From Pseudomonadota bacterium (GTDB lineage Bacteria > Desulfobacterota > S145-22), in assembly GCA_015493505.1 (NCBI GenBank), contig WGDA01000005.1, positions 8,525 through 72,524 of the forward strand: 64,000 bases of DNA, written 5' to 3'. Both the position numbers and the translations under genes were made by a program. Below the pieces are notes generated by a model, which was not told the origin of the DNA, did no database searches, and saw only the letters and a list, made by a program, of their open reading frames with translations. This document shows, piece after piece, positions 12,748-64,000 of the stretch. Each line of letters opens with the position of its first letter. Positions within the stretch are counted from its first letter, which is position 1.

Positions 12748-12923
12748 CTTGTTGAAATTCTACCAAATTCCCCCTGAAATGTCATGGCAATCTCATGGAA
12801 TTTTCCTGTCGATTTCAGGGGAGAACTTCCGAGGGACTCTGCCCCTCGCCGAACCGGTTTTATCATTTGACAATCCCCGCGTCCTGGTCAATAATACCCG
12901 CGAATCTTAAACGGAAAACCGAG

Positions 12924-13160
12924 ATGCGTATAAGAGAAATCACACTCGAAACCACGCTGCTGGAGCTTGTGGAAGCCTACCCCGAGGCCTGTAAAATCTT
13001 CGAGCGCTATAACGCCCAGGCCGGCGAGTGCATTCTGTGTTACAGCCTGTTTGAACCGCTAAAAAAGGTGATCGAAAAATACGGGCTCAACGAAGAATCC
13101 CTTTTGTCTGAATTGCGGGCCGTCCAGCAAACCCCTCGCGATGCCTCTCGGAATACCTGA
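12924..13160 (+). CDS. DUF1858-like small protein (redox-disulfide-like CxxC domain).
   Basis: It is 78 aa from the ATG at 12924. The pattern ITLETTLLELVEAYPEACKIFERYNAQAGECILC...KYGLNEESLLSELRA resembles DUF1858. The upstream part of the track ORF is not supported. Confidence 0.45.
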   Translation: MRIREITLETTLLELVEAYPEACKIFERYNAQAGECILCYSLFEPLKKVIEKYGLNEESLLSELRAVQQTPRDASRNT

Positions 13161-25837: not shown

Positions 25838-25851
25838 AGGCTGATAGAGCC

Positions 25852-26601
25852 GTGCCTGTGCCATCCCTGAACATCCTGAGAGACCTGAAGGAACGAATTC
25901 GGAACGCAAAACATGTTGTCGCTATTACTGGTGCCGGCATCTCTGCTGAAAGCGGGATTCCCACGTTTCGGGGGAAGGACGGACTTTGGAAACAGTATCG
26001 CGCGGAAGAGCTGGCCACGCCCTGGGCCTTCGAGAAAAACCCGGAGCTTGTCTGGAAATGGTATGACTGGCGCAGAGGCATCATCGCGAAGGCCACGCCC
26101 AACGCCGGGCATGTTACCCTGGCCCGGATGGAGGATTTCTACCCGGAATTTACCCAGATCACCCAGAACGTGGACGGCCTGCACCGCAAAGCCGGGAGTC
26201 AAAAGGTTATTGAAATCCACGGTAACCTCTGGCGCGTGCGGTGCGTCCGCGAAGGAAAAACATTCTATCTGGAAGACGTCCCCCTCAGGGAGATTTCCCC
26301 CCGGTGCTCTTGCGGCGCCATCCTGCGGCCCGACGTGGTCTGGTTCGGGGAATCCCTGGATCCGGAATTGATTCGGAAGGCCCATGAGGAGCTGGCGGCT
26401 TGCAACCTGCTTCTCGTCATCGGGACTTCCGGTATTGTTCAGCCGGTGGCGAGTTTCCCGGCCATCGCCAGGCAATCAGGCGCTTACATTGTTGAAATCA
26501 ATCTGGAGACAACCCCCCTCACTTCTTTGGCGGATCTTTCGCTGAAAGGGAAATCGGGGGATATTCTTCCCGCCCTCTTTGACTTCCAAAGCGATTCATG
26601 A
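25852..26601 (+). CDS. cobB: NAD-dependent protein deacylase (sirtuin, CobB/Sir2 family).
   Basis: It has GAGISAESGIPTFRG, a Zn ribbon CSCG...C region, and QNVDGLH. Confidence 0.85.
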   Translation: MPVPSLNILRDLKERIRNAKHVVAITGAGISAESGIPTFRGKDGLWKQYRAEELATPWAFEKNPELVWKWYDWRRGIIAKATPNAGHVTLARMEDFYPEFTQITQNVDGLHRKAGSQKVIEIHGNLWRVRCVREGKTFYLEDVPLREISPRCSCGAILRPDVVWFGESLDPELIRKAHEELAACNLLLVIGTSGIVQPVASFPAIARQSGAYIVEINLETTPLTSLADLSLKGKSGDILPALFDFQSDS

Positions 26602-26643
26602 ACACCATCAGATCTGCTTTGCCTGCATGGCGTCCCGTGGCAC

Positions 26644-26672
26644 TTGACATTTCACGCCGTTTTAACTAAAAA
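26644..26672 (+). promoter_or_regulatory. Sigma70-like promoter TTGACA-N17-TAAAAA upstream of the TPR gene.
   Basis: It was read directly; the spacing is exactly 17 nt. Confidence 0.4.
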
Positions 26673-26689
26673 TTGTTGAACCTTGGCAA

Positions 26690-27625
26690 ATGGGAGTGGT
26701 GTTGGCGAAAAGAAGTCTCATCGGCAGAATCTTTGGCATAAAGAAAAAGTCAACCAAAGTTGACGTCAAAGAACTGAAAAAAAGGCTTGAGGACAACCCA
26801 AAAGACCTGAAAGCTATTCTCAAGCTTGGCGATTATTATTCTACCAAACGTAAGAAGAACAAGGCCATCGAATACTATCAGACGGCAGCCCGGATCTGTA
26901 TTGAAGACGGGTTTGTCAACAAGGGCATTGCCATAGTCAAAAAGATTGCCACACTGGACCAGAAAAACCCTGAAATATACCGGCAATTGGCCGATCTCTA
27001 TCTGAGGCAGAACCTCTTCGGGGAGGCGACCATCCAGCTTCAGAAGGCACTGGAACTGGATCCCGACAATGCCGAAATCAAGGAAACCCTTGAGAAACTC
27101 ACCGGGACATCTGACGATCAGCGCGCTATCATCGATTCTCTCCGGGCTGACCGGGAGGTTCAGATCGCCTCCCAAACGGAGACGGAAGAGATTATCCGTG
27201 AGGCGAAGGAACAGATCCGGAAACAGATTTCCAATGAAGACGTCGTGGAACACTACGACCTGGGTGTCGCTTACATGGAAATGGAACTCTATGAAAGCGC
27301 CATCGAGGAATTTGGGATCACCCTCAATTCTCCAGAGTTTTTTGAAGACTCCATCCGGCTCATCTACGAATGTTTCTTCTCGATGGACCGGATTCAGGAC
27401 GCCATCGAATACTTCAAGGCCCTGCTGGAACGCCCCAACATCTCACCATTGCAAAAGGGGGTCATCCGTTTCCACATCGGTATGGCCTATGAAGACTCTC
27501 TTGAGACGAACAAAGCCATTGAAATCTACGAAGACCTTCTCAACACGGGGTATCCCAAGCCGGATGTCCTCATCCAGAGAATTGATCGGCTGAAACATAC
27601 GGCCAGTTTTGACGACCTTGCCTAA
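26690..27625 (+). CDS. Tetratricopeptide-repeat protein.
   Basis: It has TPR-like repeats (YYQTAARICIEDG, ADLYLRQNLFGEAT, KALELDPDNAE). Its function is unknown. Confidence 0.6.
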   Translation: MGVVLAKRSLIGRIFGIKKKSTKVDVKELKKRLEDNPKDLKAILKLGDYYSTKRKKNKAIEYYQTAARICIEDGFVNKGIAIVKKIATLDQKNPEIYRQLADLYLRQNLFGEATIQLQKALELDPDNAEIKETLEKLTGTSDDQRAIIDSLRADREVQIASQTETEEIIREAKEQIRKQISNEDVVEHYDLGVAYMEMELYESAIEEFGITLNSPEFFEDSIRLIYECFFSMDRIQDAIEYFKALLERPNISPLQKGVIRFHIGMAYEDSLETNKAIEIYEDLLNTGYPKPDVLIQRIDRLKHTASFDDLA

Positions 27626-27727
27626 CAATATTCAACGCAGGATGAATGAGCGGTGTAACATCACCGCGGTAAAAAATGACGTATTTCTCCTGAGAAAAAT
27701 AAATCTGCCGAAAAAAGGAGGCTCATT

Positions 27728-28693
27728 ATGAAACGCATTGGTGTCCTGACGAGTGGAGGGGACTCCTCCGGAATGAACGCCGCCATCCGGGCCGTGGTGC
27801 GGGCGGGAATCGATAAGGGGCTTGAAGTTTACGGATTCATCCAGGGGTACGCTGGGGTGCTCGACAAGCATTACAAGGTGATGGAGTCCTCAAGTGTCAG
27901 TGGCATCATCAACCGGGGTGGGACCATCCTGAAAAGCGCCCGGTGTGAAGAATTTAAAACAGATCGCGGTCAGGAGGAAGGCCTTGATACCCTTCGGGAC
28001 CTGGGCGTGGATGGCCTGGTCGTTATCGGCGGTGACGGGTCGCTTCGTGGCGCCAACGCCCTTCATGAACTGGGCATGCCGGTCGTGGGTATCCCCGCGA
28101 CAATCGATAACGATGTGTACGGAACAGACATGGCAATTGGTGTGGATACCTGTTTGAATACCATCACATGGGCCATCGATACCATCAAGGACACGGCGTC
28201 TTCTCATGAGCGCGCCTTCATCATTGAGGTCATGGGGAGGGAGTCGGGATACCTGGCTATCATGTCATCCCTCTCGTGCGGCGCGGAAGCGGCGATCGTG
28301 CCGGAATTCCCGTATGACCTGGAAAAAATCGGTGAAAAGCTCGCGGAAAGGTTCAAGGAAGGGAAAACCGACAGCATTATTATCGTGGCCGAGGGGGCTT
28401 CGAGCGCCTACACCATTCAACGCCGCCTCAAGAACCATATCGGCTTTGAAACCCGAATCACGGTTCTTGGGCATATCCAGCGTGGCGGGGTCACCAGTGT
28501 CTTCGACCGGACGTTAGCCAGCAGGATGGGGGTCGAGGCGGTCAACGCCCTCACGGACGGCAAAACCGGGGTTATGATAGGCTTGTCGAAAAACAAGTAT
28601 GTGGAAGTGCCTTTTGCCGACGTGATGGAAAAGAAAAAGGAGCTCGATCCGAAGCTCTTCGATTTAGCCAGAGCCCTCGGGGTGATTCTTTAA
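27728..28693 (+). CDS. pfkA: ATP-dependent 6-phosphofructokinase.
   Basis: It has GVLTSGGDSSGMNAAIRAVV and GGDGSLRGA motifs and the RBS AAGGAGG. Confidence 0.9.
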   Translation: MKRIGVLTSGGDSSGMNAAIRAVVRAGIDKGLEVYGFIQGYAGVLDKHYKVMESSSVSGIINRGGTILKSARCEEFKTDRGQEEGLDTLRDLGVDGLVVIGGDGSLRGANALHELGMPVVGIPATIDNDVYGTDMAIGVDTCLNTITWAIDTIKDTASSHERAFIIEVMGRESGYLAIMSSLSCGAEAAIVPEFPYDLEKIGEKLAERFKEGKTDSIIIVAEGASSAYTIQRRLKNHIGFETRITVLGHIQRGGVTSVFDRTLASRMGVEAVNALTDGKTGVMIGLSKNKYVEVPFADVMEKKKELDPKLFDLARALGVIL

Positions 28694-30690: not shown

Positions 30691-31383
30691 TTAAAAATCT
30701 GTTGTCTTTTCAAGTATTCCGTCTTTCAGTGTGTAAGCGGTGTCCATATACCCCGCTAGCTCCCGGTTATGGCTGACCACAATCATGGTCAGGCCCACCT
30801 GTTTATTCAGGGATAAAATCAGTTCGTGAACCGTCCGGGCTGTCTGAGGATCCAGGTTCCCCGTCGGCTCGTCCGCCAAAAGCAGGGCGGGAGACATCAT
30901 CAGGGCCCGCGCGATGGCGACCCGCTGTTGTTCCCCGCCGGACAATTCTCCCGGCTTGTGGTTGAAGCGTTGTGATCCCACCCCCACCTTTTCCAGGAGT
31001 TCCTGGGCGCGTTCCCGTGTCTCCGGGGATTTCTCTCGCGCGATCATGGCGGGCATTAGGACGTTCTCCAGCGCCGTGAACTCCGGCAGCAGGTAATGAA
31101 ACTGGAACACGAAACCAATGGTCCTGTTACGAAAGGCTGCCAACTCTTCGGGGGACAGGGAAAACACGTCCCGATCGTCGTAAAAGACGGAACCCTCCGT
31201 GGGAACGTCAAGGGTGCCAAGGATATGGAGCAGGGTGCTTTTCCCGGTGCCCGACACGCCAAGAATGCAGACGGTTTCTCCCCGGCGGACCGTCAGATTC
31301 ACGCCTTTCAGGACATCAACCTGTCGGGTCCCCGTCCGAAAGGTCTTCTTGAGATGGTTGACGGACAGCAGGGTCTCATTCAT
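30691..31383 (-). CDS. lolD: Lipoprotein-releasing system ATP-binding protein LolD.
   Basis: It has Walker [10 protein letters not shown] and the signature [15 protein letters not shown], adjacent to the FtsX-like permease. Confidence 0.8.
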
Positions 31384-32605
31384 AACGCAGGCCCTCTACC
31401 GGTGGCAGGCTTGCCGCCTGTCGCGCGGGGTAGATGGTCGCCAGGAAGCAAATGCCGATGGCGGAACCGGCGATAATCAGAAAATCCGACCAGGCCATCT
31501 GCACGGGAAGTGTCGAGATGTAATACACGTCCGTCGGCAGTTTGATGAACTGATACTTCTTCAGCAGGGCGCAGGCGATATACGCGAGGCCCGAACCCAG
31601 CAAGGTTCCGAAAACCCCGACGATCATGCCCTCCCGGATAAAGATCTTCATAATAGAGCGGCTGGTAGCACCCATGGCCTTGAGGATAGCGATGTCGCGG
31701 TGCTTCTCCATCACCACCATGATGAGTGAGCTGACGATGTTAAAAGCGGCCACCCACACGATCAGGGTCAGGATGATAAACATGGTGATGCGCTCCAGCT
31801 TCAGCGCGGAGAAGAGGTTGCGGTTCATGGTCATCCAGTCCCGCGTGAAATAAGGGAACTGGAGTTTCCGCCAGATTGCCTTTCCAATCTTTTTGACGTC
31901 GTAGATATTCTTGACCTTGACCTCGATTCCCGTGACACCACCCCGAAGCCGGAGGAACCTCTTGGCAACATCCAGGTCAATGAAGGCGAAACCGGAATCG
32001 TAGTCGTACATCCCGGACTCGAAGATTCCCGCCACTCGGAAGCGGCGGAACCGAGGGATTTCTCCCGCGGGGGTAATCACCATGCCCTGAGGTGAGATCA
32101 CCCGGACGATGCTTCCCACACGCAGTCCTCCCATGCTTCGCGCCAGCTCGTTTCCGACGAGAATTCCCGGCAATCCGCCATGGGGCTTCAAATCCAGGCT
32201 GCCCTGCTTGATAATCTTCGGAAGGACCGTAACGCTTCCGATCGACCGCTCGTCTATCCCCCGCAATACGACCCCCGTGGCGGAAAAGGTGGATGAAAGC
32301 ATCGCTTGCGAATAGACAAAGGGACTGGCGCCAGTCACGCCGGGGACGCTCTTGATTTCCTTGATGATACGCCCCGGGTCCATAATCAGGCCACCGCTCC
32401 TGAGAACCACGATATCGGCGTTCATCCCTAGGATCTTCCCCTTCAGGTCATTTTCAAAGCCGCGCATCACGGAGAGAACGATGATCAGTGCCATGACCCC
32501 AAGGGTTACACCGGCGATGGAGATGAGGGTGATGACCGAGACAAAAGACTGCCGGCGTTTCGATTTCAGATAGCGAAGTGAGATGAAGGTTTCATACCTC
32601 ATCAT
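31376..32605 (-). CDS. lolC: Lipoprotein-releasing system permease LolC/LolE (FtsX-like).
   Basis: It has the MacB/FtsX fold with 4 TM helices and a periplasmic domain, and is 409 aa. Confidence 0.75.
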   Translation of the reverse strand: MMRYETFISLRYLKSKRRQSFVSVITLISIAGVTLGVMALIIVLSVMRGFENDLKGKILGMNADIVVLRSGGLIMDPGRIIKEIKSVPGVTGASPFVYSQAMLSSTFSATGVVLRGIDERSIGSVTVLPKIIKQGSLDLKPHGGLPGILVGNELARSMGGLRVGSIVRVISPQGMVITPAGEIPRFRRFRVAGIFESGMYDYDSGFAFIDLDVAKRFLRLRGGVTGIEVKVKNIYDVKKIGKAIWRKLQFPYFTRDWMTMNRNLFSALKLERITMFIILTLIVWVAAFNIVSSLIMVVMEKHRDIAILKAMGATSRSIMKIFIREGMIVGVFGTLLGSGLAYIACALLKKYQFIKLPTDVYYISTLPVQMAWSDFLIIAGSAIGICFLATIYPARQAASLPPVEGLRYE

Positions 32606-54170: not shown

Positions 54171-55289
54171 ATGGACGCTTTTTCAATCCACACCCTGTTG
54201 CTGAAGACGGGAATCCTGCATCTCACTTATGGCCATGTCATCATGTGGGCGATTGGGTTTCTGTTTGTCTATCTCGGCATCAAAAAGAATTTCGAGCCGC
54301 TGCTCCTGGTTCCTATCGGGTTTGGCATCTTTATCGTAAACCTTCCCCTGGCCCCTCTGGCGGGAAAGGGAGACCTGATCTGGATATTTTATCATTACGG
54401 CCTGGAGTGGGAGGTCATCCCCCCGCTGATTTTCATGGGTGTCGGGGCGCTAACGGATTTTGGCCCCCTCATCGCGAACCCTAAGACCTTGTTGCTGGGT
54501 TCCGCCGCGCAGTTTGGGGTTTACGTGACCTTTTTCGGCGCCATCGCGCTGGGGTTCACCGTGAAGGAAGCCGCTTCCATCGGAATCATCGGGGGCGCCG
54601 ATGGGCCCACCTGCATCTATCTGACCGCCAAGCTTGCCCCTCGGCTGCTGGGCGCCAACGCCATTGCCGCTTACTCCTATATGGCCATGGTTCCTCTCAT
54701 TCAACCCCCTATCATGCGGCTGATGACGACCAAAAAAGAACGACAAATCGTGATGAAACAGCTCCGGCCAGTCTCCAAGCTGGAGAAAATCTTGTTTCCC
54801 ATGATCGCCACGCTGGTCATCTGCCTGCTCGTCCCGGAATCCGCCCCCCTCATGGCGATGCTTATGCTTGGGAACCTTTTCCGTGAGTGTGGTGTGGTTC
54901 AGCGCCTTTCTCACGCGGCGCAAAACGAGCTGCTCAACATCCTGACCATCTTTCTGGGAATTGCTGTCGGCACCACCATGCGGGCGGAGACCTTCCTGAA
55001 CCCCCAGCCGATTTTCATTTTCATCCTTGGCCTGTTCGCTTTCTCTTTCAGCACCGTGGGTGGCCTGTTGATGGCAAAATTCATGAACCTTTTTCTGAAG
55101 GACAAGATTAATCCCTTGATCGGTTCGGCGGGAGTGTCCGCCGTTCCAATGGCCGCCCGAGTGTCCCAGGTGGAAGGGCAAAGAGAGAACCCGAGAAACT
55201 TCCTCCTGATGCACGCGATGGGACCCAATGTGGCGGGTGTTATCGGAACAGCCACGGCGGCGGGGATGTTTCTGGCCCTTCTCAAATAA
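54171..55289 (+). CDS. oadB: Na+-translocating decarboxylase beta subunit (OadB/GcdB/MmdB family).
   Basis: It is 372 aa, polytopic, with the OadB-family sequence and the RBS GAGGAGA. Confidence 0.85.
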
Positions 55290-55362
55290 GACTTGACAAT
55301 GATAACGTTTACAAATAAAAGGGTGGTTGTGACCACCCTTTTATTGTAACAAGGAGGAGAAA

Positions 55363-56856
55363 ATGGAAGCGAAAAATCCGGTCAAGATTACGGATACCAC
55401 ATTACGGGATGGGCACCAGTCCATCTTCGCCACGCGCATGCGCACGGAAGACATGATCCCCATCGCGGAGAAAATCGACCAGATGGGATACCATTCTGTC
55501 GAGATGTGGGGTGGAGCCACGTTCGACGTCATGCACAGGTTTCTGGGGGAGGATCCGTGGGAACGGATTAGAACCCTGAGGAAACACATGCCCAATACCC
55601 CGTTCCAGATGCTTTTAAGGGGCCAAAATCTGGTGGGGTACCGGAACTATCCCGACGACGTCGTGGAGGCGTTCGTGCAGACGGCCTGCGACGTGGGGAT
55701 CGATATCTTTCGTGTCTTCGATTCCGTGAACGATGAACGCAATTTTGAAACCTGTTTCAGAGTCATCAAGAAGAATGGGAAACACATCCAGGGAACCGTC
55801 TGCTATTCCCTCACGGAAAGGCGGCTGGGGGGCCCTATCTATAACATTGACTATTTTGTAAACAAGGCCCTGAAGATTCAGGAGATGGGCGCGGACTCCA
55901 TCTGCATCAAGGACCAGGCGGGTTTGATCTCTCCCTATGACGCCTATGAACTAATCAAGGCCCTGAAGGAAAAGCTGGATGTTCCCGTGCAGTTGCATAC
56001 CCACTTCACCAGTGGCATGGGCGCCCTTTCGCTGCTGAAGGCGGTCGAGGCGGGTGTGGACGTCATCGACCTGGCCACGGCTCCCTTTGGGATGCGTACC
56101 TCTGAACCCGCCATGGAGCCTTTCATCGTGGCGCTTCAGGGAACGGGACGGGACCCGGGCCTCGATCTGAACAAAGTCTTCGAGATAGGGAATTATCTGG
56201 AAACCATTATTCCGAAATATAAGAGATTCGCGGATCAGACCCGGTTTTCTGTCATCGACACCACCGTTCTGGTTCATCAGATTCCTGGCGGCATGACAAC
56301 CAACCTTGTCAACCAGCTCAAGCAGGCGAAGGCGCTTCACCGACTTCCGGAGGTTCACAAGGAAGTCGCCCAGGTTCGGAGTGAGCTGGGATACCCTCCA
56401 CTTGTGACCCCATCCAGTCAACTGGTTGGCGCCCAGGCGGTTATGAACGTCCTGTTTGGACGCTATAAAATGATTACCAACCAGACGAAGGACTATGTCT
56501 TCGGACTGTACGGCAAGCCACCCGTCCCGGTGGATCCGGAGATACAGAAACTCGTTCTGAAAGGGTATCCCCGGGGAGAGACGCCCATCACCTGCCGGGC
56601 GGCGGACCTTCTGGAACCGGAGCTCGACAAGGCGAAGGAAGCCACGAAAGACCTGGCCAAGTCCCTCGAGGATGTCCTGATCTACGCCCTCTTCCCCACC
56701 ACTGGGTTACAGTTCCTGAAATGGAAGTATGGTGTTGAACCGATGCCCGACAGTGTCAAGCCCGTGACCCTGGAAGACGTCCAGAAGGAAGAGGAGCTGG
56801 TACGACTCGCGAGGGAAGGGAAACTCATCCGGAAAGAGGACTGCCCCAACGGGTAA
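55363..56856 (+). CDS. oadA: Oxaloacetate decarboxylase alpha / pyruvate carboxylase subunit B-type carboxyltransferase (5S-type TIM barrel). It lacks a C-terminal biotinyl (BCCP) domain.
   Basis: The N-terminus VKITDTTLRDGHQS is the HMGL-like carboxyltransferase signature. The protein is 497 aa and ends without an AMKM biotinylation motif. Confidence 0.8.
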   Translation: MEAKNPVKITDTTLRDGHQSIFATRMRTEDMIPIAEKIDQMGYHSVEMWGGATFDVMHRFLGEDPWERIRTLRKHMPNTPFQMLLRGQNLVGYRNYPDDVVEAFVQTACDVGIDIFRVFDSVNDERNFETCFRVIKKNGKHIQGTVCYSLTERRLGGPIYNIDYFVNKALKIQEMGADSICIKDQAGLISPYDAYELIKALKEKLDVPVQLHTHFTSGMGALSLLKAVEAGVDVIDLATAPFGMRTSEPAMEPFIVALQGTGRDPGLDLNKVFEIGNYLETIIPKYKRFADQTRFSVIDTTVLVHQIPGGMTTNLVNQLKQAKALHRLPEVHKEVAQVRSELGYPPLVTPSSQLVGAQAVMNVLFGRYKMITNQTKDYVFGLYGKPPVPVDPEIQKLVLKGYPRGETPITCRAADLLEPELDKAKEATKDLAKSLEDVLIYALFPTTGLQFLKWKYGVEPMPDSVKPVTLEDVQKEEELVRLAREGKLIRKEDCPNG

Positions 56857-57018: not shown

Positions 57019-60000
57019 ATGATTTCCATCGGAATTGATATTGGGTCTGTGAGTACGGATGTCGTTGTAATTGATGACCAGGGAAAGATCCTGGACGATC
57101 GATATATCCGTAATTTCGGGAAACCACTTCAGGCAACGCTGGACACCCTGTCAGAGTTGCTCGAGACATACGGGCCGGAGAACATCGAACGCGTAAGTTT
57201 CACCGGCACGGGTGGCAAGCTGGTGGCCCGTCTGAGCAAGGGGTTTTTCGTCAACGAAATCATCGCCCAGGCCAAGGCGGTTACCACCCTTTACCCGCAG
57301 GCGCGAACCATCATGGACATCGGAGGGGAGGACTCAAAGCTCATTCACCTGGAAGAAGAAAACGGAGTCGTCAAGATTCGTGATTTTTCCATGAATACCC
57401 TCTGTGCCGCGGGAACAGGCTCTTTTCTCGATCAACAGGCCACCCGCCTGGGATACAAGATTGAAGACCTGGGCGAGATCGCGCTTCAGTCGGAAAATCC
57501 CCCCCGCATCGCGGGACGATGCAGCGTGTTCGCCAAATCGGACATGATACACCTCCAGCAGATCGCCACGCCAGACAAAGACATCCTCGCGGGCCTCTGT
57601 TACGCCCTCGCGAGAAACTTCAAGAGCAGCATCGGCAAGGGAGAAGAATTCGTCCGTCCCATCGTGTTTCAGGGCGGTGTCGCGGCCAATCCCGCCATGC
57701 GGAAGGCCTTTCTGGATGTCCTGGAACTCGAAGACAATGAACTGATTATTCCGGAGCATTTCACCGCCATGGGTGCCATTGGTGCCGTCTTCCAGGCCCG
57801 GCAGGAGGGGGTCACAACCGGCGCCCCGGACCTGGAAGCCATCCGCGCGTATATTTCCCAGAGTGAACGCGAGGACAACCCTCTTAAACCTCTTTCCCTC
57901 TCCTCTCTTCACACAAAACAGGAATCCTCCCCAAAACCCTCTCTGGGTAAAAAGAAAATCCGTGGTTATCTCGGACTCGACGTGGGCTCCATCAGCACCA
58001 ACCTGGTGGTGCTCGATGAGAACCTGAACCTGATTACCAAACGATACCTAATGACCGCCGGGAAACCCATCGACGCCGTCCGAACCGGCCTGAAATCCAT
58101 TGGGGAAGAACTGGGTGACCGGGTCGAAATCATCGGAGCCGCCACAACCGGTTCCGGCCGGTACCTGACAGGTGATTACGTGGGAGCGGACGTGGTCCGG
58201 AACGAAATTACCGCCCAGGCGACGGCGGCCATCCATATCGATCCGGAGGTGGACACTGTCTTCGAGATTGGTGGGCAGGACTCCAAATACATCAGCATCG
58301 ATGATGGTGTGGTGGTCGATTTTGAGATGAACAAGTCATGCGCCGCAGGCACCGGCTCCTTCCTGGAAGAGCAGGCGGAACGACTGGGAATCTCCATCAA
58401 GAAGGAGTTCAGCGAGCTGGCCCTCTCGGCGAAAAGGCCCGTCAGGATGGGAGAACGTTGTACGGTCTTCATCGGTTCCGACCTGGTGCATCACCAGCAG
58501 CAGGGCGCGCAAACGGACGACCTGGTGGCGGGACTTTCCTATTCCATCGTCCTGAACTACCTGAACCGGGTGGTTGGTGACCGGAGAATCGGCAAGAAAA
58601 TCTTTTTTCAGGGGGGAACGGCCTTCAACAAAGGGGTCGTGGCGGCCTTTGAAAAGATTGTGGGACAGCCCATCGTGGTTCCACCCAACCATGATGTCAC
58701 GGGAGCCATCGGTGCCGCCATCCTCGCGAAGGAGTACAAGGATCAGCACCCGGGCCCCTCAAATTTCAAGGGATTCGACCTGTCTGAACGCTCTTACACC
58801 ATCAAGACCTTCGAATGTAAGGGGTGCGACAACCGATGCCTCATCCGGCAGGTCAGCATCGAGAACGAACAGCCGCTCTTCTACGGCAGCCGGTGTGAAA
58901 AGTATGATGTGGTCAAGAAAAAGAAACGGGTGGATTTGCCCAACCTGTTTGACGAGCGGGAGACGCTTCTCCTGAACGCCTACGACGGAGACCCGGAAGA
59001 TCCAACGGACCCGAAGGTCATTGGAATCCCCCGCCTGCTTTATTTCAATGAATACTTTCCCTTCTGGCTCACCTTTTTCAAGGCCTTGGGATATACCCCC
59101 ATGATTTCGGCCCCCACACGCCGCGAACTGATACGCAAGGGCGTGGAAGCCGTAGTGGCCGAAACCTGTTTTCCCGTCAAAGTGGCCCATGGGCATGTGA
59201 TCGACCTGTTGGAAAAGGGTGTGGCCAACCTCTTCCTGCCAAGCGTGATCGATCAGCCCCCGCTGGTTAAAGACGCCGTTAACAGCTTCAACTGCCCCTA
59301 TTCCCAGACCATTCCCTACACCTTTCCCTCCGCCATCAACTTTTCCAAATATCACACCCGGGTCTTGAGCCCCATTATCCGTTTCGGGCAGGGAGAGAAG
59401 GTGCTGAAGGAGGATATGGAAGCGCTTGGGAAGATGTTTGGCATTCCAAAAATCAAGGTCTTTGAAGCCTTTGTAAAGGCATGGGACACCCAGCAGGATT
59501 TCTACGCCAAACTCAAGAAACGGGGAAGGGAAGTCCTGAAACAGTTACGGGAAAAGGACGACCTGGGAATCGTGATTGTGGGACGCCCTTACAACACATG
59601 CGACAGCGGCGTAAATCTGAATATCCCCAAAAAACTTCTGGATCTGGGGGTCCTGCCCATCCCCATGGATTTTCTCGATCTGGAAGACCTCGAATCGTCT
59701 GAGGGAATCCGGGACATCTACTGGAAGTACGGACAGAAAATCCTTGCCACGGCCAAGAAGCTGAAAGGGCGGGATAACCTGTTCGCCCTCTATATCACGA
59801 ATTTTGGCTGCGGGCCGGACTCTTTCATTTCTCATTTTTTCAGGGAGATGAGCAAGGGAAGCCCCTATCTCCAGCTTGAAATTGACGAACACAGCGCGGA
59901 CGCCGGCGCCATCACCCGGTGTGAGGCCTTTTTGGACAGCCTCAGAAACGTGAGAAAGCGCCGGGCGGCCATGAAGCCCGTCCAGTCTGAAACGCCTCAT

Positions 60001-61233
60001 GTGAAAAGGTCCGTGCCCCGCCTGGCCGACCGGGTCATTTATATCCCCCACATGGCTGACCATGCGTACGCCTTTGCGGCGGCTTTCCATGCGTGTGGAC
60101 TCCAGGCGGACGTCTTCCCCGAATCGACCGAGGAGACCCTGGAGTATGGAAGAAAGTATACCACGGGGAAGGAATGTTTCCCCTGTATCGTGACGACGGG
60201 AGACCTCATCCGCATCACCAAGATGCCAGGGTTCGACCCCAAAAAGGTCGCCATTTTCTTCCCTTCCGGATCCGGACCCTGCCGGTATGGCCAGTATCAC
60301 CGCTTTCACCGCCTGCTGCTGGATCAGTTGGGACACAAGGACATCCCCATTTTTGCCCCTGAGCAGGATGAATCCCTGTACGAAGACGTCTCCGCGCTCG
60401 GAAAGAAATTCCGAAGGCTGGGGTGGCAGGGAATCGTGGCCGTGGACCTCCTTTACAAGATGCTCCATGAAACCAGGCCCTACGAAGTGGTCAAGGGTTC
60501 CACGGACGCGGTCTATAAACGCTGCCTGGAAAAGATCTGTGATGACATCCGGAATGAGCGGAACCTGATTGACACGTTTGATGCCATTATCAGCGAATTC
60601 CGGACCATCGAGGTGGACCGCTCCGAGAAGAAACCCCTCATTGGGATCGTGGGGGAAATCTTCGTTCGCCTCAACCGCTTCAGCAACGAGGATGTGATCC
60701 GAAAGGTTGAAGACCTGGGAGGGGAGGTTTGGCTCGCCCCCCTGTCTGAGTGGATATACTATACCAACTTCACGGCCCGGATGAGAAATACCATCAAAAA
60801 GAAGTGGCTGAGCAACCTGAAACTGTCGATTGTGGAGCATTTTCAGAAGAAGGATGAGAAGATGCTCATGAATTTCCTTTCCCGTTACCTGAGAAATTCC
60901 CACGAGCCGGAAACGGAGGAGATTATCGAAAAGGCCTCCGCCTATCTTCACCCAAGTTTCGAGGGCGAGGCGATTTTAAGTGTTGGGAAGGCCATCGACC
61001 TGAAGGATAAAGGGGCGAGCGGGGTCATCAACATCATGCCATTCACCTGTATGCCGGGGACCATTGTCAGCGCCATTCTCAAGCGGTTCAGGGAGGAAAA
61101 TCAGCACTTTCCCATTCTGAACATGGCGTATGACGGGCAGGAACAGACCAACACCATGACCCGATTGGAGGCCTTCATGCATCAGGTGAAGGAATTTCAG
61201 AAACAGACAATCCGTCAATCGCAGGAAAGGTGA
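57019..61233 (+). CDS. Large fusion protein of unknown function. It has two BadF/BadG/BcrA/BcrD-type ATPase (activase) repeats, a Cys4 motif, and two 2-hydroxyacyl-CoA dehydratase (HgdA/HgdB, BcrB/BcrC)-like domains.
   Basis: It is 1404 aa with the RBS GGGAGGAG. The ATPase repeats run aa 1-255 and about aa 316-570, each with DxGSxST, CAAGTG and RCxVFxxSD motifs. CKGCDNRC...C lies at aa 600-626. Dehydratase-family blocks are NFGCGPDSF...EIDEH, GSGPCRYGQY and MPFTCMPG. Confidence 0.85.
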   Translation: MISIGIDIGSVSTDVVVIDDQGKILDDRYIRNFGKPLQATLDTLSELLETYGPENIERVSFTGTGGKLVARLSKGFFVNEIIAQAKAVTTLYPQARTIMDIGGEDSKLIHLEEENGVVKIRDFSMNTLCAAGTGSFLDQQATRLGYKIEDLGEIALQSENPPRIAGRCSVFAKSDMIHLQQIATPDKDILAGLCYALARNFKSSIGKGEEFVRPIVFQGGVAANPAMRKAFLDVLELEDNELIIPEHFTAMGAIGAVFQARQEGVTTGAPDLEAIRAYISQSEREDNPLKPLSLSSLHTKQESSPKPSLGKKKIRGYLGLDVGSISTNLVVLDENLNLITKRYLMTAGKPIDAVRTGLKSIGEELGDRVEIIGAATTGSGRYLTGDYVGADVVRNEITAQATAAIHIDPEVDTVFEIGGQDSKYISIDDGVVVDFEMNKSCAAGTGSFLEEQAERLGISIKKEFSELALSAKRPVRMGERCTVFIGSDLVHHQQQGAQTDDLVAGLSYSIVLNYLNRVVGDRRIGKKIFFQGGTAFNKGVVAAFEKIVGQPIVVPPNHDVTGAIGAAILAKEYKDQHPGPSNFKGFDLSERSYTIKTFECKGCDNRCLIRQVSIENEQPLFYGSRCEKYDVVKKKKRVDLPNLFDERETLLLNAYDGDPEDPTDPKVIGIPRLLYFNEYFPFWLTFFKALGYTPMISAPTRRELIRKGVEAVVAETCFPVKVAHGHVIDLLEKGVANLFLPSVIDQPPLVKDAVNSFNCPYSQTIPYTFPSAINFSKYHTRVLSPIIRFGQGEKVLKEDMEALGKMFGIPKIKVFEAFVKAWDTQQDFYAKLKKRGREVLKQLREKDDLGIVIVGRPYNTCDSGVNLNIPKKLLDLGVLPIPMDFLDLEDLESSEGIRDIYWKYGQKILATAKKLKGRDNLFALYITNFGCGPDSFISHFFREMSKGSPYLQLEIDEHSADAGAITRCEAFLDSLRNVRKRRAAMKPVQSETPHVKRSVPRLADRVIYIPHMADHAYAFAAAFHACGLQADVFPESTEETLEYGRKYTTGKECFPCIVTTGDLIRITKMPGFDPKKVAIFFPSGSGPCRYGQYHRFHRLLLDQLGHKDIPIFAPEQDESLYEDVSALGKKFRRLGWQGIVAVDLLYKMLHETRPYEVVKGSTDAVYKRCLEKICDDIRNERNLIDTFDAIISEFRTIEVDRSEKKPLIGIVGEIFVRLNRFSNEDVIRKVEDLGGEVWLAPLSEWIYYTNFTARMRNTIKKKWLSNLKLSIVEHFQKKDEKMLMNFLSRYLRNSHEPETEEIIEKASAYLHPSFEGEAILSVGKAIDLKDKGASGVINIMPFTCMPGTIVSAILKRFREENQHFPILNMAYDGQEQTNTMTRLEAFMHQVKEFQKQTIRQSQER

Positions 61234-61238
61234 ACTGT

Positions 61239-63359
61239 ATGACAAAAAAAATCGCGTTGGTTCTATGTGTCATCCTGGTGGGGTCTTTCGTTACCGGTTG
61301 TGGGGAATCTTTAATGTTCTGGAAAAAGAAGAAAGAGATTGAGGTCAGCCACCAGAAGCTGCCCCCCTTCAAAACCCTCTTCGAACGAACAGTCGAGATG
61401 TACAATTCCAAGCAGTACAAAGACGCCATCAACTCCTTTCTCTTCCTTCGCGAAAACTATCCTCAAGAGACGGCCTACCAGTCCCGCATCACCCTCTATC
61501 TGGCAGACAGCCATTTCCACCAGAAGGAATACCCGGAAGCCATCGCGAACTATCGGGAATTTATCAAACTTTACCCGACAAGCCCGGATGTTCCCTATGC
61601 CTATTTTCAGATTGGAATGTGTAACTACAAAGAGCGGCGAACCTATGATCGCGATGCCACCTTTGTCCGCAAGGCGATTGAGAATTTCAAGAAGGTGCTC
61701 CAGATCGCCCCGCCCGGCGTGCTGGTCAATGAGTCCATCCGCATGATCGCCCTGTGTCAGCGGGAGCTGGCACTCCATGACCTGTTTATCGCGGATTTTT
61801 ACATGCGGACCCACCACTACAAATCCGCTATTTTCAGGTACGAAGACGTGCTCCATTCCTTCCCCGATTTCAAAATCTATGACAGGGCCCACTTGGGGAT
61901 TGGAAAGGCCTACCTGAAGTTGAAAAAGCGGAATGAGGCCTTTCGCCACCTCAGCTATGTGGCTAAAAATTATCCGAACACCCCTTACGGGAAAGAGGCC
62001 TGGAAACTGCTCCAGAAGGATTTCAAGGTGGCATCTCGTGATCAGTTGCCCGATGTGACCTTCCCTATGGCAAACGTGGCCTCTGCTACGCCGCCGGCAC
62101 CAGCCACAAAACCAGTACCGTCTCCAGCGCCCGAAAAGGCAACCGCCTCGACAAAAACAGCCGGGGGAAAACAGGTAAAAACAAACGCGCCGGCCTCCAC
62201 CACACCTCCCGCCAAGGTCGCCAAAAAACCCGCGCCCGAACCGAAACCGCATACCTATTTCCCGAAAATCACCAAGGTTCAGGAAAAACCTGCTGTTTCC
62301 TCTCCACCCGTCAAGACGGTAAAATCTTCCGAACCGCAAACGAAAGTCGTCAAGACCACGCCGCAGGCGAAGGAGCAGACGCGCAACGGAACCACGTCAA
62401 AAGCCGCGCCGGCACCCAAAACTCCCCCCGTGTCGCCTCCCCTTAAACACGTAAAAAAACCCACTCCGGCGCCTCCCGCGCCGCAACATGTGGCGACCGC
62501 TTCAACGTCTCCCACGCCCCCTACGCCTCACAAAACCGTAACGGCCAAAAAGGTTGCCGTGAAAAAACCCAGCCAACCAAAGCCCGTTAGCGCGGTCCCA
62601 GCCTCTCCAAAGACTCAAGAAACACCCGTGCCCCAAAAGCCCTCCGAGGAAAAGGCAGCGCCTCAAAAACCTGTCCAGGCACCTGCCGCTTCCATGGCCT
62701 CGAAACCCGCTTCACCTGCCCCGCCACCCAAAAAAGCGGCGCAGAAGGCGGCTCCGCCCGCTACCGCCGTTCAAAAGTCTCAACCGCCTACTGGGAAGGC
62801 GACGCCTTCACCGGCTGTAAAGAAGGCTGAAAAAACCCCTTCAAATGTCAAAAAAATGGTGAAGACCGACACCCTGCCTCCCAAAAAGGTGAAACAACCC
62901 TCTTCAGGCCTGGTTGGCGCGCTCGACACCCGAAAACCCATTCATATCACAGCAGACCACGTGGAATCCCAGCAGGGGAAAAATTCCGTTCGGTTCTATG
63001 GGCGGGTTGTGGCGAAGCAGAAAGACGTGACCCTCAAATGCGATGATCTCACGGCGTTTTATACCTCCGGAGGCAAGGCCATCGATAAAATCGTGGCTCA
63101 TGGCCATGTCGTCATCACCCAGCTCAACAAGAAGGTCAAGTGTGGAAAGGCGATATTTTACAACGCCGCGCGAAAGATTATCCTGGAAGACTCCCCCATC
63201 GCCTGGGATGGCAACAACCGCATCAGCGGAAGCAAGATGGTGCTCCTTCTCGACAAGAACGAAATTCAGATTCTCGGGTCAAAAAAGAAGCCCACGGAGC
63301 TTGTAATCTATCCGAATCAAAAACCGGGGTTACTGAAGAGTCCAGCTCAGTCGAAGTAA
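61239..63359 (+). CDS. bamD: Lipoprotein fusing a BamD-like (YfiO) TPR domain to an LptA/OstA-N-like domain through a long Pro/Ala/Lys-rich linker.
   Basis: It has a signal peptide with the lipobox VTGC. The BamD-like TPR region runs to about aa 260 (YKDAINSFLFL..., EYPEAIANYREFI..., YKSAIFRYEDVL...). An approximately 250-aa low-complexity PAK-rich segment follows. The C-terminal LptA-like domain reads PIHITADHVE...GNNRISGSKMVLLLDKNEIQILG. Confidence 0.65.
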   Translation: MTKKIALVLCVILVGSFVTGCGESLMFWKKKKEIEVSHQKLPPFKTLFERTVEMYNSKQYKDAINSFLFLRENYPQETAYQSRITLYLADSHFHQKEYPEAIANYREFIKLYPTSPDVPYAYFQIGMCNYKERRTYDRDATFVRKAIENFKKVLQIAPPGVLVNESIRMIALCQRELALHDLFIADFYMRTHHYKSAIFRYEDVLHSFPDFKIYDRAHLGIGKAYLKLKKRNEAFRHLSYVAKNYPNTPYGKEAWKLLQKDFKVASRDQLPDVTFPMANVASATPPAPATKPVPSPAPEKATASTKTAGGKQVKTNAPASTTPPAKVAKKPAPEPKPHTYFPKITKVQEKPAVSSPPVKTVKSSEPQTKVVKTTPQAKEQTRNGTTSKAAPAPKTPPVSPPLKHVKKPTPAPPAPQHVATASTSPTPPTPHKTVTAKKVAVKKPSQPKPVSAVPASPKTQETPVPQKPSEEKAAPQKPVQAPAASMASKPASPAPPPKKAAQKAAPPATAVQKSQPPTGKATPSPAVKKAEKTPSNVKKMVKTDTLPPKKVKQPSSGLVGALDTRKPIHITADHVESQQGKNSVRFYGRVVAKQKDVTLKCDDLTAFYTSGGKAIDKIVAHGHVVITQLNKKVKCGKAIFYNAARKIILEDSPIAWDGNNRISGSKMVLLLDKNEIQILGSKKKPTELVIYPNQKPGLLKSPAQSK

Positions 63360-64000
63360 GACGCCGCCTTCTTGCCCGTCCGTCACCTCAACCATGGCGG
63401 GGTTGTGCGTGAGGAGGCGTGAAAGGGCGGGGAAGAGTGTCTGTATGTCGGGATCCTGTATCCCGTTCCGAAGCGCCTTGATTTCCTTCTCCGACAGGGC
63501 TGGCAGGGAATCTTCAAAGGAGATGAAAAAGGTTTCTTCCGCCGGAGAATCCACCTCGATCCGAAGCTTTCCCCCCTCCTGAGGGCGCGCCCGTTCGATG
63601 ACGCGGAGAACCCACTCATCCATGAATGAGGTAAAATGAAAGGGTATCCCTTTCACGGGAGGAGTCTGGGGGTTTATCTGGATTTCTTTTTCCAGTTTAT
63701 GCTTGAAAAACATATCCCCCATCCAGAACTGGACGTTTTCCTCAATCAGCGTTCCCACCTGAAAAAGACTGGGGGAGTCCTGCTCTTCCGTGTTGACCTT
63801 CCACATCAGGGTCTCAACGATCTTGGAAATTTTGGAGACCTGTTGCGTAATTTCATCGACGTGTTTCCGGAGTTCTTCCTGCCCCTTCAGTTTTAGGGAA
63901 AGCAGGTCGCTATTCATCATAATCAGGGAAAGGGGCGTCATGATATTATGGCCGATACCAGCCGAAAGCCTGCCAATATGGGCCAGACGCTTTATTCTGT
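63330..64000 (-). CDS. Sensor histidine kinase, C-terminal part. The 5' end lies beyond the window end.
   Basis: The minus-strand translation continues past 63941 without a start codon. The H-box is AHIGRLSAGIGHNIMTPL and is followed by an ATPase-like C-terminus. Confidence 0.55.
   Translation of the reverse strand, partial: RIKRLAHIGRLSAGIGHNIMTPLSLIMMNSDLLSLKLKGQEELRKHVDEITQQVSKISKIVETLMWKVNTEEQDSPSLFQVGTLIEENVQFWMGDMFFKHKLEKEIQINPQTPPVKGIPFHFTSFMDEWVLRVIERARPQEGGKLRIEVDSPAEETFFISFEDSLPALSEKEIKALRNGIQDPDIQTLFPALSRLLTHNPAMVEVTDGQEGGVLLRLSWTLQ

Follow-up and report, generated by a model that had tools for sequence, protein, structure and literature searches.

The Gram-negative outer membrane is built jointly by two machines, the β-barrel assembly machine (BAM), which inserts β-barrel proteins, and the Lpt system, which delivers LPS; both are antibiotic targets. 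A known meeting point of the two is LptD, which is a substrate of BAM and touches BamD while it is being assembled; stalled LptD intermediates, too, are contacted by BamD (review PMC13067283). LptM has been implicated in LptD assembly (PMC13067283), and the E. coli outer membrane lipoprotein LptY binds and stabilises the periplasmic β-taco of LptD (bioRxiv 10.1101/2025.04.10.648201). Plain BamDs, those of the nearest other lineages included, are about 240-300 aa long, and stand-alone secreted LptA, which has its own signal peptide, comprises about 160-200 aa. The gene described here instead combines four parts in one polypeptide of 706 aa: a lipoprotein signal, a BamD TPR domain, a disordered linker and an LptA-type β-jellyroll, the last forming the C-terminus of the lipoprotein. 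We found no description of a BamD-LptA fusion in the literature, subscription-only papers lying outside the coverage of the search, and databases name such proteins inconsistently, some records as BamD and others as LptA.

The 706-aa product is encoded by the ORF 61239-63359 on the forward strand of the window, by which we mean the whole 64-kb stretch of DNA that was analysed. The longest reading of the ORF (61230..63359, +) begins at a GTG and would give 709 aa; the ATG at 61239 is the choice of the public gene calls, a Shine-Dalgarno-like site (AGGAAAGG) lies 5' of it, and the TGA of the preceding gene terminates 5 nt ahead of it. The features of the gene are as follows.

61239..61301, forward strand: signal peptide MTKKIALVLCVILVGSFVTGC with lipobox VTGC (aa 18-21); direct sequence reading.
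61302..61370, forward strand: conserved post-lipobox segment GESLMFWKKKKEIEVSHQKLPPF, leading from the lipid anchor to the TPR domain; alignment A1.
61371..62063, forward strand: BamD (YfiO) TPR domain, aa 45-275; PF13525, TIGR03302, solved BamDs, AlphaFold.
62064..62915, forward strand: Pro/Lys/Ala/Thr-rich disordered linker, aa 276-559 (284 aa, 852 nt); composition, pLDDT.
62244..62315, forward strand: linker motif 1, KPHTYFPKITKVQEKPAVSSPPVK, aa 336-359; alignment A1.
62844..62888, forward strand: linker motif 2, NVKKMVKTDTLPPKK, aa 536-550, adjoining the jellyroll on its N-terminal side; alignment A1.
62916..63314, forward strand: complete LptA-type (OstA_N / LptD_N) β-jellyroll, aa 560-692; PF03968, 2R19, Foldseek.
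63315..63359, forward strand: variable C-terminal tail (aa 693-706) and TAA stop; alignment, ORF coordinates.

The final 30 nt of the gene overlap the 3' end of a convergent minus-strand gene (63330..63941), and its neighbours in the window encode a CoA-enzyme activase, oxaloacetate decarboxylase subunits and two-component regulators; a LolD/LolC-like pair is also encoded within the window. No lpt, lpx or bam genes were found among the 42 of 58 crudely called window ORFs that were compared with Pfam, the other 16 lying at 12795-13160, at 23448-28693 and in short stretches of 42-54 kb. Neither the 64-kb window nor the 10 kb around any fusion contains a second BamD, and none of the fusion loci examined has lpt, lpx or bam genes at a distance of up to 10 kb.

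Judged by its profile matches and predicted fold, the gene product, a predicted outer membrane lipoprotein, has as its N-terminal half a genuine BamD, the TPR-bearing component of the β-barrel assembly machine. Cys21, the predicted lipidated +1 residue, is invariant in all 18 aligned orthologues (alignment A1), and the +2 residue is Gly, not Asp. Ten positions of the post-lipobox segment are likewise invariant (S24, L25, F27, W28, E33, K40, L41, P42, P43 and F44), and AlphaFold pLDDT is low across this segment. The protein scores 102.7 bits with Pfam YfiO (PF13525; gathering threshold 25) and 177.9 bits, over aa 7-249, with the NCBIfam BamD model TIGR03302 (cutoff 81.4); it falls below the cutoff of the enterobacterial equivalog NF008119 (53 vs 363), as expected because it comes from a distant phylum. 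AlphaFold predicts aa 40-275 with pLDDT above 90 as 12 helices in the five-TPR, all-α fold, and among the solved BamDs matched by sequence 3QKY is best (E = 5.5e-22), with E. coli, Neisseria and others at ~1e-10. The domain contains the DRD motif (aa 137-139). Its Arg200, aligned with R197 of E. coli BamD, is invariant in all eight divergent fusion sequences aligned, covering all fusion groups; in E. coli, R197 contacts BamA POTRA5, with BamA E373 as the partner residue.

The C-terminal domain is a full LptA-family jellyroll on the evidence of profiles and a predicted model. It scores 50.5-53.8 bits with Pfam LptD_N (PF03968, the LptA / LptD N-terminal domain; threshold 20.4), and the family profile aligns with E. 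coli LptA 2R19 over its full length (residues 5-144, E = 2.6e-8). In Foldseek the best matches are LptA 2R19/2R1A (TM 0.72-0.76, target-normalised) and LptH (0.72), with the N-terminal domain of LptD and LptC next in rank; LptC HMMs match weakly. AlphaFold pLDDT is 72-91. The edge strands of the domain, DTRKPIHITAD at the N-terminus and PTELVIYP at the C-terminus, are strongly conserved (DTRxPIxIxxD and KPTELVIYP), and the jellyroll is collinear with operon-encoded LptAs, both edge strands included. Its nearest free relatives are canonical LptAs of 36-40% identity, located in lptC-lptA-lptB-rpoN operons. The five standalone LptA matches that were looked up, the best-scoring one included, come from other assemblies or samples than the fusion-bearing ones (sources of standalone LptAs: GCA_015660955.1, GCA_041890195.1, GCA_037440645.1, JGI 3300038380 and Logan runs), and no canonical lptCAB operon could be linked to a fusion-bearing genome; a tetranucleotide/GC comparison was uninformative because the fusion clade itself spans GC 0.46-0.56. 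The jellyroll of the fusion lies outside any lptC-lptA-lptB (kds...rpoN) operon and has no separate signal peptide, BamD and linker standing where LptA has its own. It misses the LptA equivalog TIGR03002 (whole protein 59.1 bits, domain alone 63.1 bits; cutoff 71.7), as well as NF008143 (20-25 bits vs 234). Because of the score below the LptA equivalog cutoff and the lack of an lpt operon, the name LptA paralogue suits the domain better than "the" LptA.

The linker between the two domains is composed of 21.8% Pro, 16.5% Lys, 15.5% Ala and 11.6% Thr, with a net charge of +38 and a pI of 10.5, and AlphaFold pLDDT is below 50. Its identity among orthologues is ~31%, compared with about 80% for both domains, and its length there ranges from 152 to 357 aa, with the reading frame kept in every case despite the indels. 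Two short motifs nonetheless stand out from this background: in motif 1, Y340 and P342 are invariant and P337 and P357 nearly so, while in motif 2, K542 and P548 are invariant and K538, V541 and P547 occur in at least 90% of sequences. AlphaFold gives no confident contact of either motif with the BamD domain or the jellyroll. Tandem DNA repeats were considered as a source of the linker, and only a single 19-nt match of period 9, nothing sizeable, was found. Across fusion groups the charge of the linker runs from +59 to -30 and its length from about 45 to 357 aa; it is basic in the clade of the window protein, and neutral, acidic or just ~45 aa long in sister groups. Compared across groups, it is tethering alone that is conserved, not linker charge or length.

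A preliminary description of this DNA had proposed a VTGC lipobox, a BamD/YfiO-like TPR domain and a C-terminal LptA/OstA pattern. The invariant cysteine (18/18) bears out the lipobox, PF13525, TIGR03302, the solved BamDs and AlphaFold the TPR domain, and PF03968, 2R19 and Foldseek an LptA-like character in both sequence and fold; its caveat that the C-terminal domain might prove unrelated to LptA fell away on comparison, LptA and LptH being the best structural matches. The Pro/Ala/Lys/Thr low-complexity linker is also present, slightly longer than the ~250 aa (~750 nt) estimated. A long linker of this composition is not essential to the design, since sister groups differ.

Could the fusion be an artefact, in which a frameshift, a chimeric assembly or read-through has joined separate bamD and lptA genes? 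Such a join, also raised in the preliminary description, might seem to be hinted at by three short "standalone" LptA-like proteins in the protein collection, P0202-P0204, which are 72-78% identical to the jellyroll. P0204 (locus L040) is however a fragment created by a 100-N scaffold gap within the linker, and P0203 (locus L041) is another, its locus beginning at a contig edge. The exact 706-aa protein is found on 4 independently assembled contigs; 17 orthologous protein clusters contain the fusion, and at the loci of related GTDB species both domains lie in one intact ORF in six of seven cases despite the linker indels, the seventh being cut by a contig end. The same architecture recurs in at least four other divergent groups and at the 14 further loci described below. 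We found no join, and we regard an artefact as refuted as far as sequence data allow, its probability being practically nil. No split bamD / lptA-like gene pairs were seen in close relatives either, the two candidates examined, P0203 and P0204, being fragments; at the plain-BamD loci (L008-L035), the surrounding 10 kb contain no LptA-like ORF.

The phylogenetic distribution, which the preliminary description had left to be checked, proved to be wide. Uncultured Thermodesulfobacteriota/"Deltaproteobacteria", in lineages related to sulfate reducers, include at least five divergent groups with the BamD-linker-LptA architecture, with at least 12 distinct 50%-identity clusters carrying BamD and LptA-like domains, plus one short-linker group; a metagenome scan with the alignment of one fusion group gave 14 further loci carrying fusion ORFs. 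The fusion is no singular oddity; a broad family is already present in public databases. Pairwise distances of the BamD half and the LptA half are tightly correlated (r = 0.976; Mantel test 0/2000), which shows that the two halves co-evolve. The fusion is old and vertically inherited in several of these uncultured lineages; the trees used were neighbour-joining trees, in which deep branching is unreliable. In one group the fusion sits in a conserved array, ftsA-ftsZ...fusion-tolQRA-tolB-pal-cpoB, directly 5' of tolQRAB-pal-cpoB. The same bacteria encode many other tethered or tandem LptA-like proteins, and the other N-terminal domain found tethered to LptA-like modules matched nothing in Pfam or the PDB apart from a hint of LpoB below threshold.

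We suggest that the fusion is the working BamD of these lineages, with a tethered LptA paralogue that docks near BAM onto the Lpt bridge or LptD; taken as a whole, we consider this model about evenly balanced between right and wrong. The protein is most likely the BamD that belongs to the lineage itself, with an LptA paralogue attached, and the most likely role that we infer for the jellyroll is docking onto the Lpt bridge or the LptD β-taco at BAM. With the BamD half acting in BAM, the jellyroll would be held close to the complex and could dock through β-strand edge pairing, as among LptC, LptA and LptD; its partner might be the periplasmic β-taco of LptD, the outer-membrane-proximal end of the LptC-LptA bridge, or both. 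In this way the sites of OMP insertion would be coupled to the maturation of LptD, itself a BAM substrate, and/or to the assembly of the bridge and the insertion of LPS. LptY, which stabilises the LptD β-taco in E. coli, and the contact of BamD with stalled LptD intermediates offer precedents. The spacer would contribute mainly reach and flexibility, with charge and length being lineage-specific. The position of the jellyroll below the LptA equivalog cutoff, the absence of lpt, lpx and bam neighbours, the lack of a confident AlphaFold contact between the linker motifs and either domain, and the unreliable deep branching of the trees count against this model.

An obligatory form of such a coupling would arise if there were no free LptA in these bacteria, so that the BamD-tethered jellyroll is the bridge unit between LptC and LptD, with BamD as its outer membrane anchor and each LPS bridge nucleated at a BAM complex. 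The jellyroll comprises the whole LptA module, both edge strands included, and is conserved as well as BamD; its nearest free relatives are genuine operon LptAs, and the 284-aa linker, disordered in the predicted model, would be long enough to span the whole periplasm. None of the 40 LptA-like matches is a standalone LptA from a fusion-bearing assembly, although this absence is weak evidence, the search having been word-indexed and not run on whole genomes. The score under the equivalog cutoff points the other way, as does the rough tree, which sets the fused jellyrolls in groups of their own apart from most standalone LptAs and which therefore looks like paralogy. Moreover, lptCAB operons are common among related Thermodesulfobacteriota, and linkers of ~45 aa could hardly reach LptC in the inner membrane without extra bridge units. 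We believe that a sole, anchored LptA is rather unlikely, and that its consequence for the envelope, namely that every trans-envelope Lpt bridge is built from a BamD-tethered jellyroll and nucleated at BAM, is quite improbable.

That the jellyroll has been repurposed altogether, for other hydrophobic cargo, be it another lipid or the acyl chains of lipoproteins, or to act as a holdase on unfolded segments of OMPs that are delivered to BamD, we regard as unlikely. Lpt paralogues are known to take on other roles: LptF/G/C homologues in Caulobacter serve sphingolipid transport (bioRxiv 10.64898/2026.04.12.717747), and a Borrelia LptD homologue is reported to flip surface lipoproteins (bioRxiv 10.1101/2022.12.21.521298). 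The domain score below the equivalog cutoff would fit such a change of role, and so would the many other tethered or tandem LptA-like proteins in the same bacteria, which indicate that the fold is being reused. Against this, the fused jellyrolls keep the signature motifs found across the LptA family and the two edges that form the bridge, alternative lipid pathway genes are absent from the scanned neighbourhood, and nothing positive points to another ligand. A device for co-expression is also conceivable, in which cleavage of the linker in the periplasm frees LptA and a normal BamD. The linker, disordered according to AlphaFold, should for that reason be accessible to proteases, and its two conserved short motifs are possible processing sites; these motifs are not common to the other fusion groups, however, whose linkers differ completely, and short-linker fusions also occur. 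A released jellyroll would furthermore stay in the same compartment, which leaves the benefit unclear, and we know of no BAM or Lpt component that is processed in this way. We hold a polyprotein to be very unlikely.

Returning to the model of a working BamD with a docking LptA paralogue, the inheritance of the same fusion across several lineages suggests that the machines for protein insertion and LPS delivery may act side by side. A tether between OMP and LPS insertion, or an LptA-like module that reaches across the periplasm, are both plausible readings, and the wide conservation of the fusion and the co-evolution of its halves strengthen them. Since the linkers of sister groups are neutral, acidic or ~45 aa long, the comparison favours action near the outer membrane rather than an obligatory reach to the inner membrane. 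A BamD and a complete LptA module that have remained fused over long evolutionary time in several lineages, with co-evolving halves, constitute Rosetta-stone evidence, a classic sign of action in physical proximity. The fusion makes the spatial coordination of OMP and LPS insertion a testable question, and it raises others, namely whether the jellyroll binds the LptD β-taco, LptA or LptC, and whether E. coli BamD lies beside the outer membrane end of the Lpt bridge. Were there no free LptA, OMP and LPS insertion would be obligatorily co-localised, a hard-wired form of a coupling that is merely suspected in model bacteria. There is also a problem of annotation, as pipelines call the fusions "BamD" or "LptA", and scaffold gaps in the linker create spurious stand-alone "LptA" entries.

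With the BamDs of E. coli (5D0O chain D) and Rhodothermus marinus (3QKY) the fusion shares the lipobox signal, the all-helical fold of five TPRs, HMM scores well above cutoff, the conserved DRD motif and the Arg equivalent to R197; it differs in having ~430 extra residues, made up of the disordered linker and the LptA-type jellyroll, and, compared with E. coli BamD, a conserved 23-aa segment after the lipobox. With LptA (YhbN; E. coli 2R19) and LptH (P. aeruginosa 4UU4) it shares the same β-jellyroll, collinear over the mature protein, including the N-terminal "PIxIxSD", the "FxGNVxxxQ" and the C-terminal strands. In contrast to these proteins, the jellyroll lacks its own signal peptide and is attached covalently to a predicted outer membrane lipoprotein; and it is not encoded in lptC-lptA-lptB, scores below the TIGR03002 cutoff and is 36-40% identical to the related operon LptAs. 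The N-terminal β-taco of LptD at the outer membrane end and LptC at the inner membrane end are likewise LptA-like jellyrolls attached to a membrane component, but the anchor of the fusion is a subunit of another machine, BAM, the attachment is a long flexible spacer instead of a rigid junction or a transmembrane helix, and the best match of the jellyroll in both sequence and structure is LptA rather than LptD or LptC. LptY (YedD) and LptM of the E. coli LptDE translocon offer a functional analogy only, as lineage-specific outer membrane lipoproteins that engage LptD; the fusion is unrelated to them in sequence and fold, they stand outside BAM, and an interaction of the fusion with LptD is something that we only infer. 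Pro-rich spacers of the TonB type span the periplasm. The linker of the fusion resembles them in being Pro/Lys-rich, of low complexity and extended, and in linking a part anchored in the membrane with an interaction domain further away, whereas spacer composition varies within the fusion family from basic to acidic, neutral or very short; the likeness does not imply homology.

The fusion gene is called as a single open reading frame on the forward strand, starting at 61230 (GTG) or 61239 (ATG) and ending at 63359. The ATG, which gives a protein of 706 aa and is also the start in public gene calls of the identical protein, is preceded by AGGAAAGG, and the TGA of the upstream gene ends 5 nt before it. 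A lipoprotein signal with the lipobox VTGC is found at the N-terminus (MTKKIALVLCVILVGSFVTGC); its Cys is invariant in 18/18 aligned family members. The profile matches along the protein are as follows.

Domain matches of the fusion protein
aa 7-249: BamD, TIGR03302 (NCBIfam), 177.9 bits against a cutoff of 81.4
aa 45-215: YfiO/BamD (Pfam), 102.7 bits against a cutoff of 25
aa 569-673: LptD_N (Pfam; LptA / LptD N-terminal domain), 50.5 bits against a cutoff of 20.4
C-terminal jellyroll: LptA equivalog, TIGR03002, 59-63 bits, below the cutoff of 71.7

In the full-length AlphaFold model, the TPR domain (aa 40-275) is all-helical and confident (pLDDT >90), aa 279-559 are disordered (pLDDT <50), and aa 560-690 form a beta-sandwich (pLDDT 72-89). 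Profiles and model together bear out the preliminary description of one ORF encoding a lipobox, a BamD TPR domain, a low-complexity linker and an LptA-like C-terminus. A 23-aa segment after the lipobox (61302-61370, GESLxFWKKKKEVEV..KKLPPF) is conserved, with F27 and W28 invariant; it is lacking after the Cys of E. coli BamD, and may be a membrane-proximal or partner-binding element.

That separate genes had been joined artefactually, the frameshift or assembly error against which the preliminary description had guarded, can be rejected. The exact 706-aa protein occurs on 4 independently assembled contigs, including the NCBI MAG GCA_027055435.1 and the Logan assembly of SRR10312499; 17 orthologous protein clusters (51-65% identity, 567-722 aa) have both Pfam domains, and the linker indels are in frame. 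The gene is present in 7 GTDB species-level genomes, with both domains in one ORF in 6/7, the remaining locus (L006) being cut at a contig end. Three short "stand-alone LptA" entries (proteins P0202-P0204) are 72-78% identical to the jellyroll, and for two of them we could establish that they are fragments: in the P0204 locus (L040), the linker is interrupted by a scaffold gap of 100 N (about 5370-5470), while that of P0203 (L041, 1-250) opens at a contig edge. The low-complexity linker thus breaks assemblies and generates spurious "stand-alone LptA" and truncated "BamD" database entries.

Among solved BamD structures, Rhodothermus marinus 3QKY is the best match to the N-terminal half (E = 5.5e-22), with E. 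coli, Neisseria and other BamDs matching at ~1e-10. In E. coli BamD, R197 touches the BamA POTRA5 residue E373; Arg200 of the window protein aligns with this residue (using an E. coli sequence identical to PDB 5D0O chain D), and the equivalent Arg and the DRD motif are invariant in all divergent fusion groups. At the sequence level, the N-terminal half is shown to be a bona fide BamD, and the protein a lipoprotein predicted to be targeted to the OM.

The jellyroll profile matches nearly the whole mature E. coli LptA (2R19, E = 2.6e-8), including the N-terminal strand DTDQPIHIESD; LptH scores far below LptA in the same search, and neither LptC nor LptD is among the sequence-profile matches. Predicted alone, the domain has a core pLDDT of 80-91, and the best Foldseek matches are LptA (target-normalised TM 0.72-0.76) and LptH (0.72), with the LptD N-terminal domain and LptC ranking next, so that the LptA-like assignment made earlier holds on structural comparison as well as by profile. 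From first to last strand the domain is collinear with operon-encoded LptAs and E. coli LptA, the BamD part and linker appearing in effect in place of LptA's signal peptide. Its nearest free relatives are 36-40% identical, and all five that were looked up, the best-scoring included, lie in canonical (kdsABCD-)lptC-lptA-lptB-rpoN-hpf-ptsN operons of Thermodesulfobacteriota/"Deltaproteobacteria" MAGs. Profile match, fold, collinearity and operon-encoded relatives together lead us to regard the jellyroll as LptA-derived. Unlike an LptA equivalog, it is fused, lies outside an lpt operon and falls short of the TIGR03002 cutoff; we therefore call it an LptA paralogue.

The fusion is spread far wider than the single window, as HMMER searches and a metagenome scan of its phylogenetic distribution revealed. 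The jellyroll profile, run against 1.84 billion representatives, matched 4991 LptA-like proteins, with many long proteins among the best 150. Domain HMMs and Pfam identify BamD-linker-LptA proteins in no fewer than 12 distinct clusters at 50% identity, which fall into several groups.

Groups of BamD-linker-LptA fusions
Group i: the window's clade
Group ii: P0187-P0193 (390-434 aa), linker only ~45 aa; added by a further search, which also added P0194
Group iii: P0031, P0075, P0101, P0128, P0152
Group iv: P0029, P0039, P0053 and relatives; Glu/Pro/Lys linkers, acidic or neutral
Group v: P0135

In group iii, P0031 and P0128 have one or two NTF2-like domains (Cds6_C/DUF4440/SnoaL, Pfam) after the jellyroll, P0101 and P0152 have a C-terminal sequence similar to these by eye, and P0075 is shorter, without such domains. 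The metagenome scan for this group yielded 16 loci; 14 of them are untruncated, and in each of these the fusion is one ORF (811-953 aa stop-to-stop). Outside the fusions, the nearest BamDs come from Desulfobulbia, Aminicenantes and Acidobacteriota; they are plain proteins with ORFs of ~250-350 aa stop-to-stop.

In a set of 20 fusions, the pairwise distances between BamD halves track those between LptA halves (r = 0.976, Mantel 0/2000), which indicates that the halves are inherited together. In a rough neighbour-joining tree of BamD, groups ii-iv are monophyletic; close to them are the window clade and P0135, interspersed with a few plain BamDs. The BamDs of Desulfobulbia make up a clade of their own. 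In the jellyroll tree, the fused domains occupy a few neighbouring groups, separate from the majority of stand-alone LptAs and also from a second tethered LptA-like family. The deep nodes of both trees are unreliable. The pattern is consistent with an old fusion that arose once or a few times and was then passed on vertically.

The second tethered family (P0026, P0030, P0033, P0034, P0045, P0050, P0066, P0079, P0085, P0086, P0089, P0096, P0105, P0142) combines a signal peptide, an uncharacterised domain of ~130-150 aa, an acidic Pro-rich linker and an LptA-type jellyroll. Its N-terminal domain, with the signature VGILPFxIYS...FLVYGSLTKI...LSIDARVF, is duplicated in P0079 and P0096; apart from a hint of LpoB below threshold, it matches nothing in Pfam or the PDB. 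Many other proteins (P0019-P0022, P0024, P0032, P0047, P0058, P0083 and others) carry 2-5 tandem LptA-like jellyrolls, some with an extra N-terminal domain; one possibility is that they serve as periplasmic bridges made of a single chain.

The linker (aa 276-559, 284 aa) consists of 21.8% Pro, 16.5% Lys, 15.5% Ala and 11.6% Thr, with a net charge of +38. Orthologues are ~80% identical in both domains vs ~31% in the linker, whose length varies from 152 to 357 aa with the reading frame kept; across the fusion groups its charge ranges from +59 to -30 and its length from ~45 to 357 aa. As far as the alignments go, tethering is its sole conserved property. Two short conserved motifs lie within this fast-evolving disordered region, one at 62244-62315 (KPHxYFPKITKV...PPVK, Y340 and P342 invariant) and one at 62844-62888 (NVKKMVKTDTLPPKK); neither makes confident contacts in the AlphaFold model, and they may be docking or processing sites. 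Sister group iv linkers have a recurrent hydrophobic-[RK][FY][ED]EEG[RK][KQ]P motif (carriers P0027, P0029, P0036-P0039, P0041, P0044, P0053), in full hydrophobic-x-hydrophobic-hydrophobic-[RK]-[FY]-[ED]-E-E-G-[RK]-[KQ]-P-hydrophobic-S, for example LIRFEEEGKKPVS, often twice per linker; it is absent from the window's clade.

The fusion gene lies 3' of oxaloacetate-decarboxylase-like and activase genes, apparently in one transcription unit.

Features around the fusion gene
30691-32605, reverse strand: LolD-like ABC ATPase and LolC/E-like permease (MacB_PCD + FtsX), adjoining lysS
54171-56856, forward strand: oxaloacetate-decarboxylase beta subunit (Na+-pump type) and carboxyltransferase alpha-like subunit, 91-93% identical across the clade
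57019-61233, forward strand: CoA-enzyme activase type protein, 1404 aa, with two BcrAD_BadFG ATPase modules, DUF2229 and an HGD-D-like region
63330-63941, reverse strand: HisKA-only protein, ~232-253 aa, convergent, with a weak HisKA and no HATPase domain

The activase is 82-86% identical across the clade, far more conserved than the BamD-LptA gene overall. The HisKA-only gene, whose position is conserved across the clade, overlaps the 3' end of the fusion gene by 30 nt with its own 3' end, and beyond it lie an NtrY-like kinase, a sigma-54 response regulator and RseC. None of this clade's neighbours is informative about the function of the fusion, and Pfam (42 of 58 crudely called ORFs) found no further lpt, lpx or bam genes in the window. 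Within 10 kb of the fusions, neither an LptA-like nor a BamD gene occurs a second time. The LolD/LolC-like pair fits a diderm that sorts OM lipoproteins such as BamD via Lol. In group iii (L039, L053-L068), every locus with enough flank has the array ftsA-ftsZ-radical SAM-...-fusion-tolQ-tolR-tolA-tolB-pal-cpoB, surroundings of envelope and division genes in which a bamD gene would be at home. Cds6_C also occurs joined to a YkuD L,D-transpeptidase at locus L038, a hint of a connection to peptidoglycan.

These comparisons show that BamD bearing a full LptA-type jellyroll at the end of a disordered tether is a conserved and co-evolving architecture. We suggest that the fusion would be the lineage's working BamD, and that its jellyroll would be held near BAM. 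Edge-to-edge pairing is the assembly mode of all Lpt jellyrolls; the tethered domain would pair in this way with other Lpt jellyrolls, the most plausible partners being the LptD beta-taco or the OM-proximal end of the LptC-LptA bridge. LptD is assembled by BAM and, as an intermediate, touches BamD (review PMC13067283), so a BamD-borne LptA module could act on nascent LptD or on LPS insertion. It might cap and stabilise the nascent beta-taco and pass it into the bridge, or it might keep LPS insertion beside OMP insertion. With a linker conserved only as a tether and variable in charge and length, the common denominator would be an OM-proximal position and not an obligatory inner-membrane reach, although in this clade the 284-aa basic spacer could span the whole periplasm.

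Alternatively, the tethered jellyroll could be the sole LptA, anchored at the OM, a reading that we consider unlikely. A jellyroll repurposed for other hydrophobic cargo, or as a holdase, has a parallel in the Lpt paralogues repurposed for sphingolipids in Caulobacter (bioRxiv 10.64898/2026.04.12.717747); we think this quite unlikely too. Highly improbable, in our view, is a polyprotein whose linker is cleaved to release two proteins.

We found no description of a BamD-LptA fusion in the literature searched. Public databases contain the fusions already, though only with names that were assigned automatically and are inconsistent, alternating between "BamD" and "LptA" (NCBI, JGI); all come from uncultured Deltaproteobacteria MAGs. 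Since both parts belong to well-known families, the kind of system is not new; what makes the fusion valuable is that it offers a natural "Rosetta stone", connecting BAM with Lpt and suggesting direct experiments. For the proposed binding of the jellyroll to LptD, LptY of E. coli would by analogy be a functional precedent: this lipoprotein binds the LptD beta-taco and stabilises it (bioRxiv 10.1101/2025.04.10.648201).
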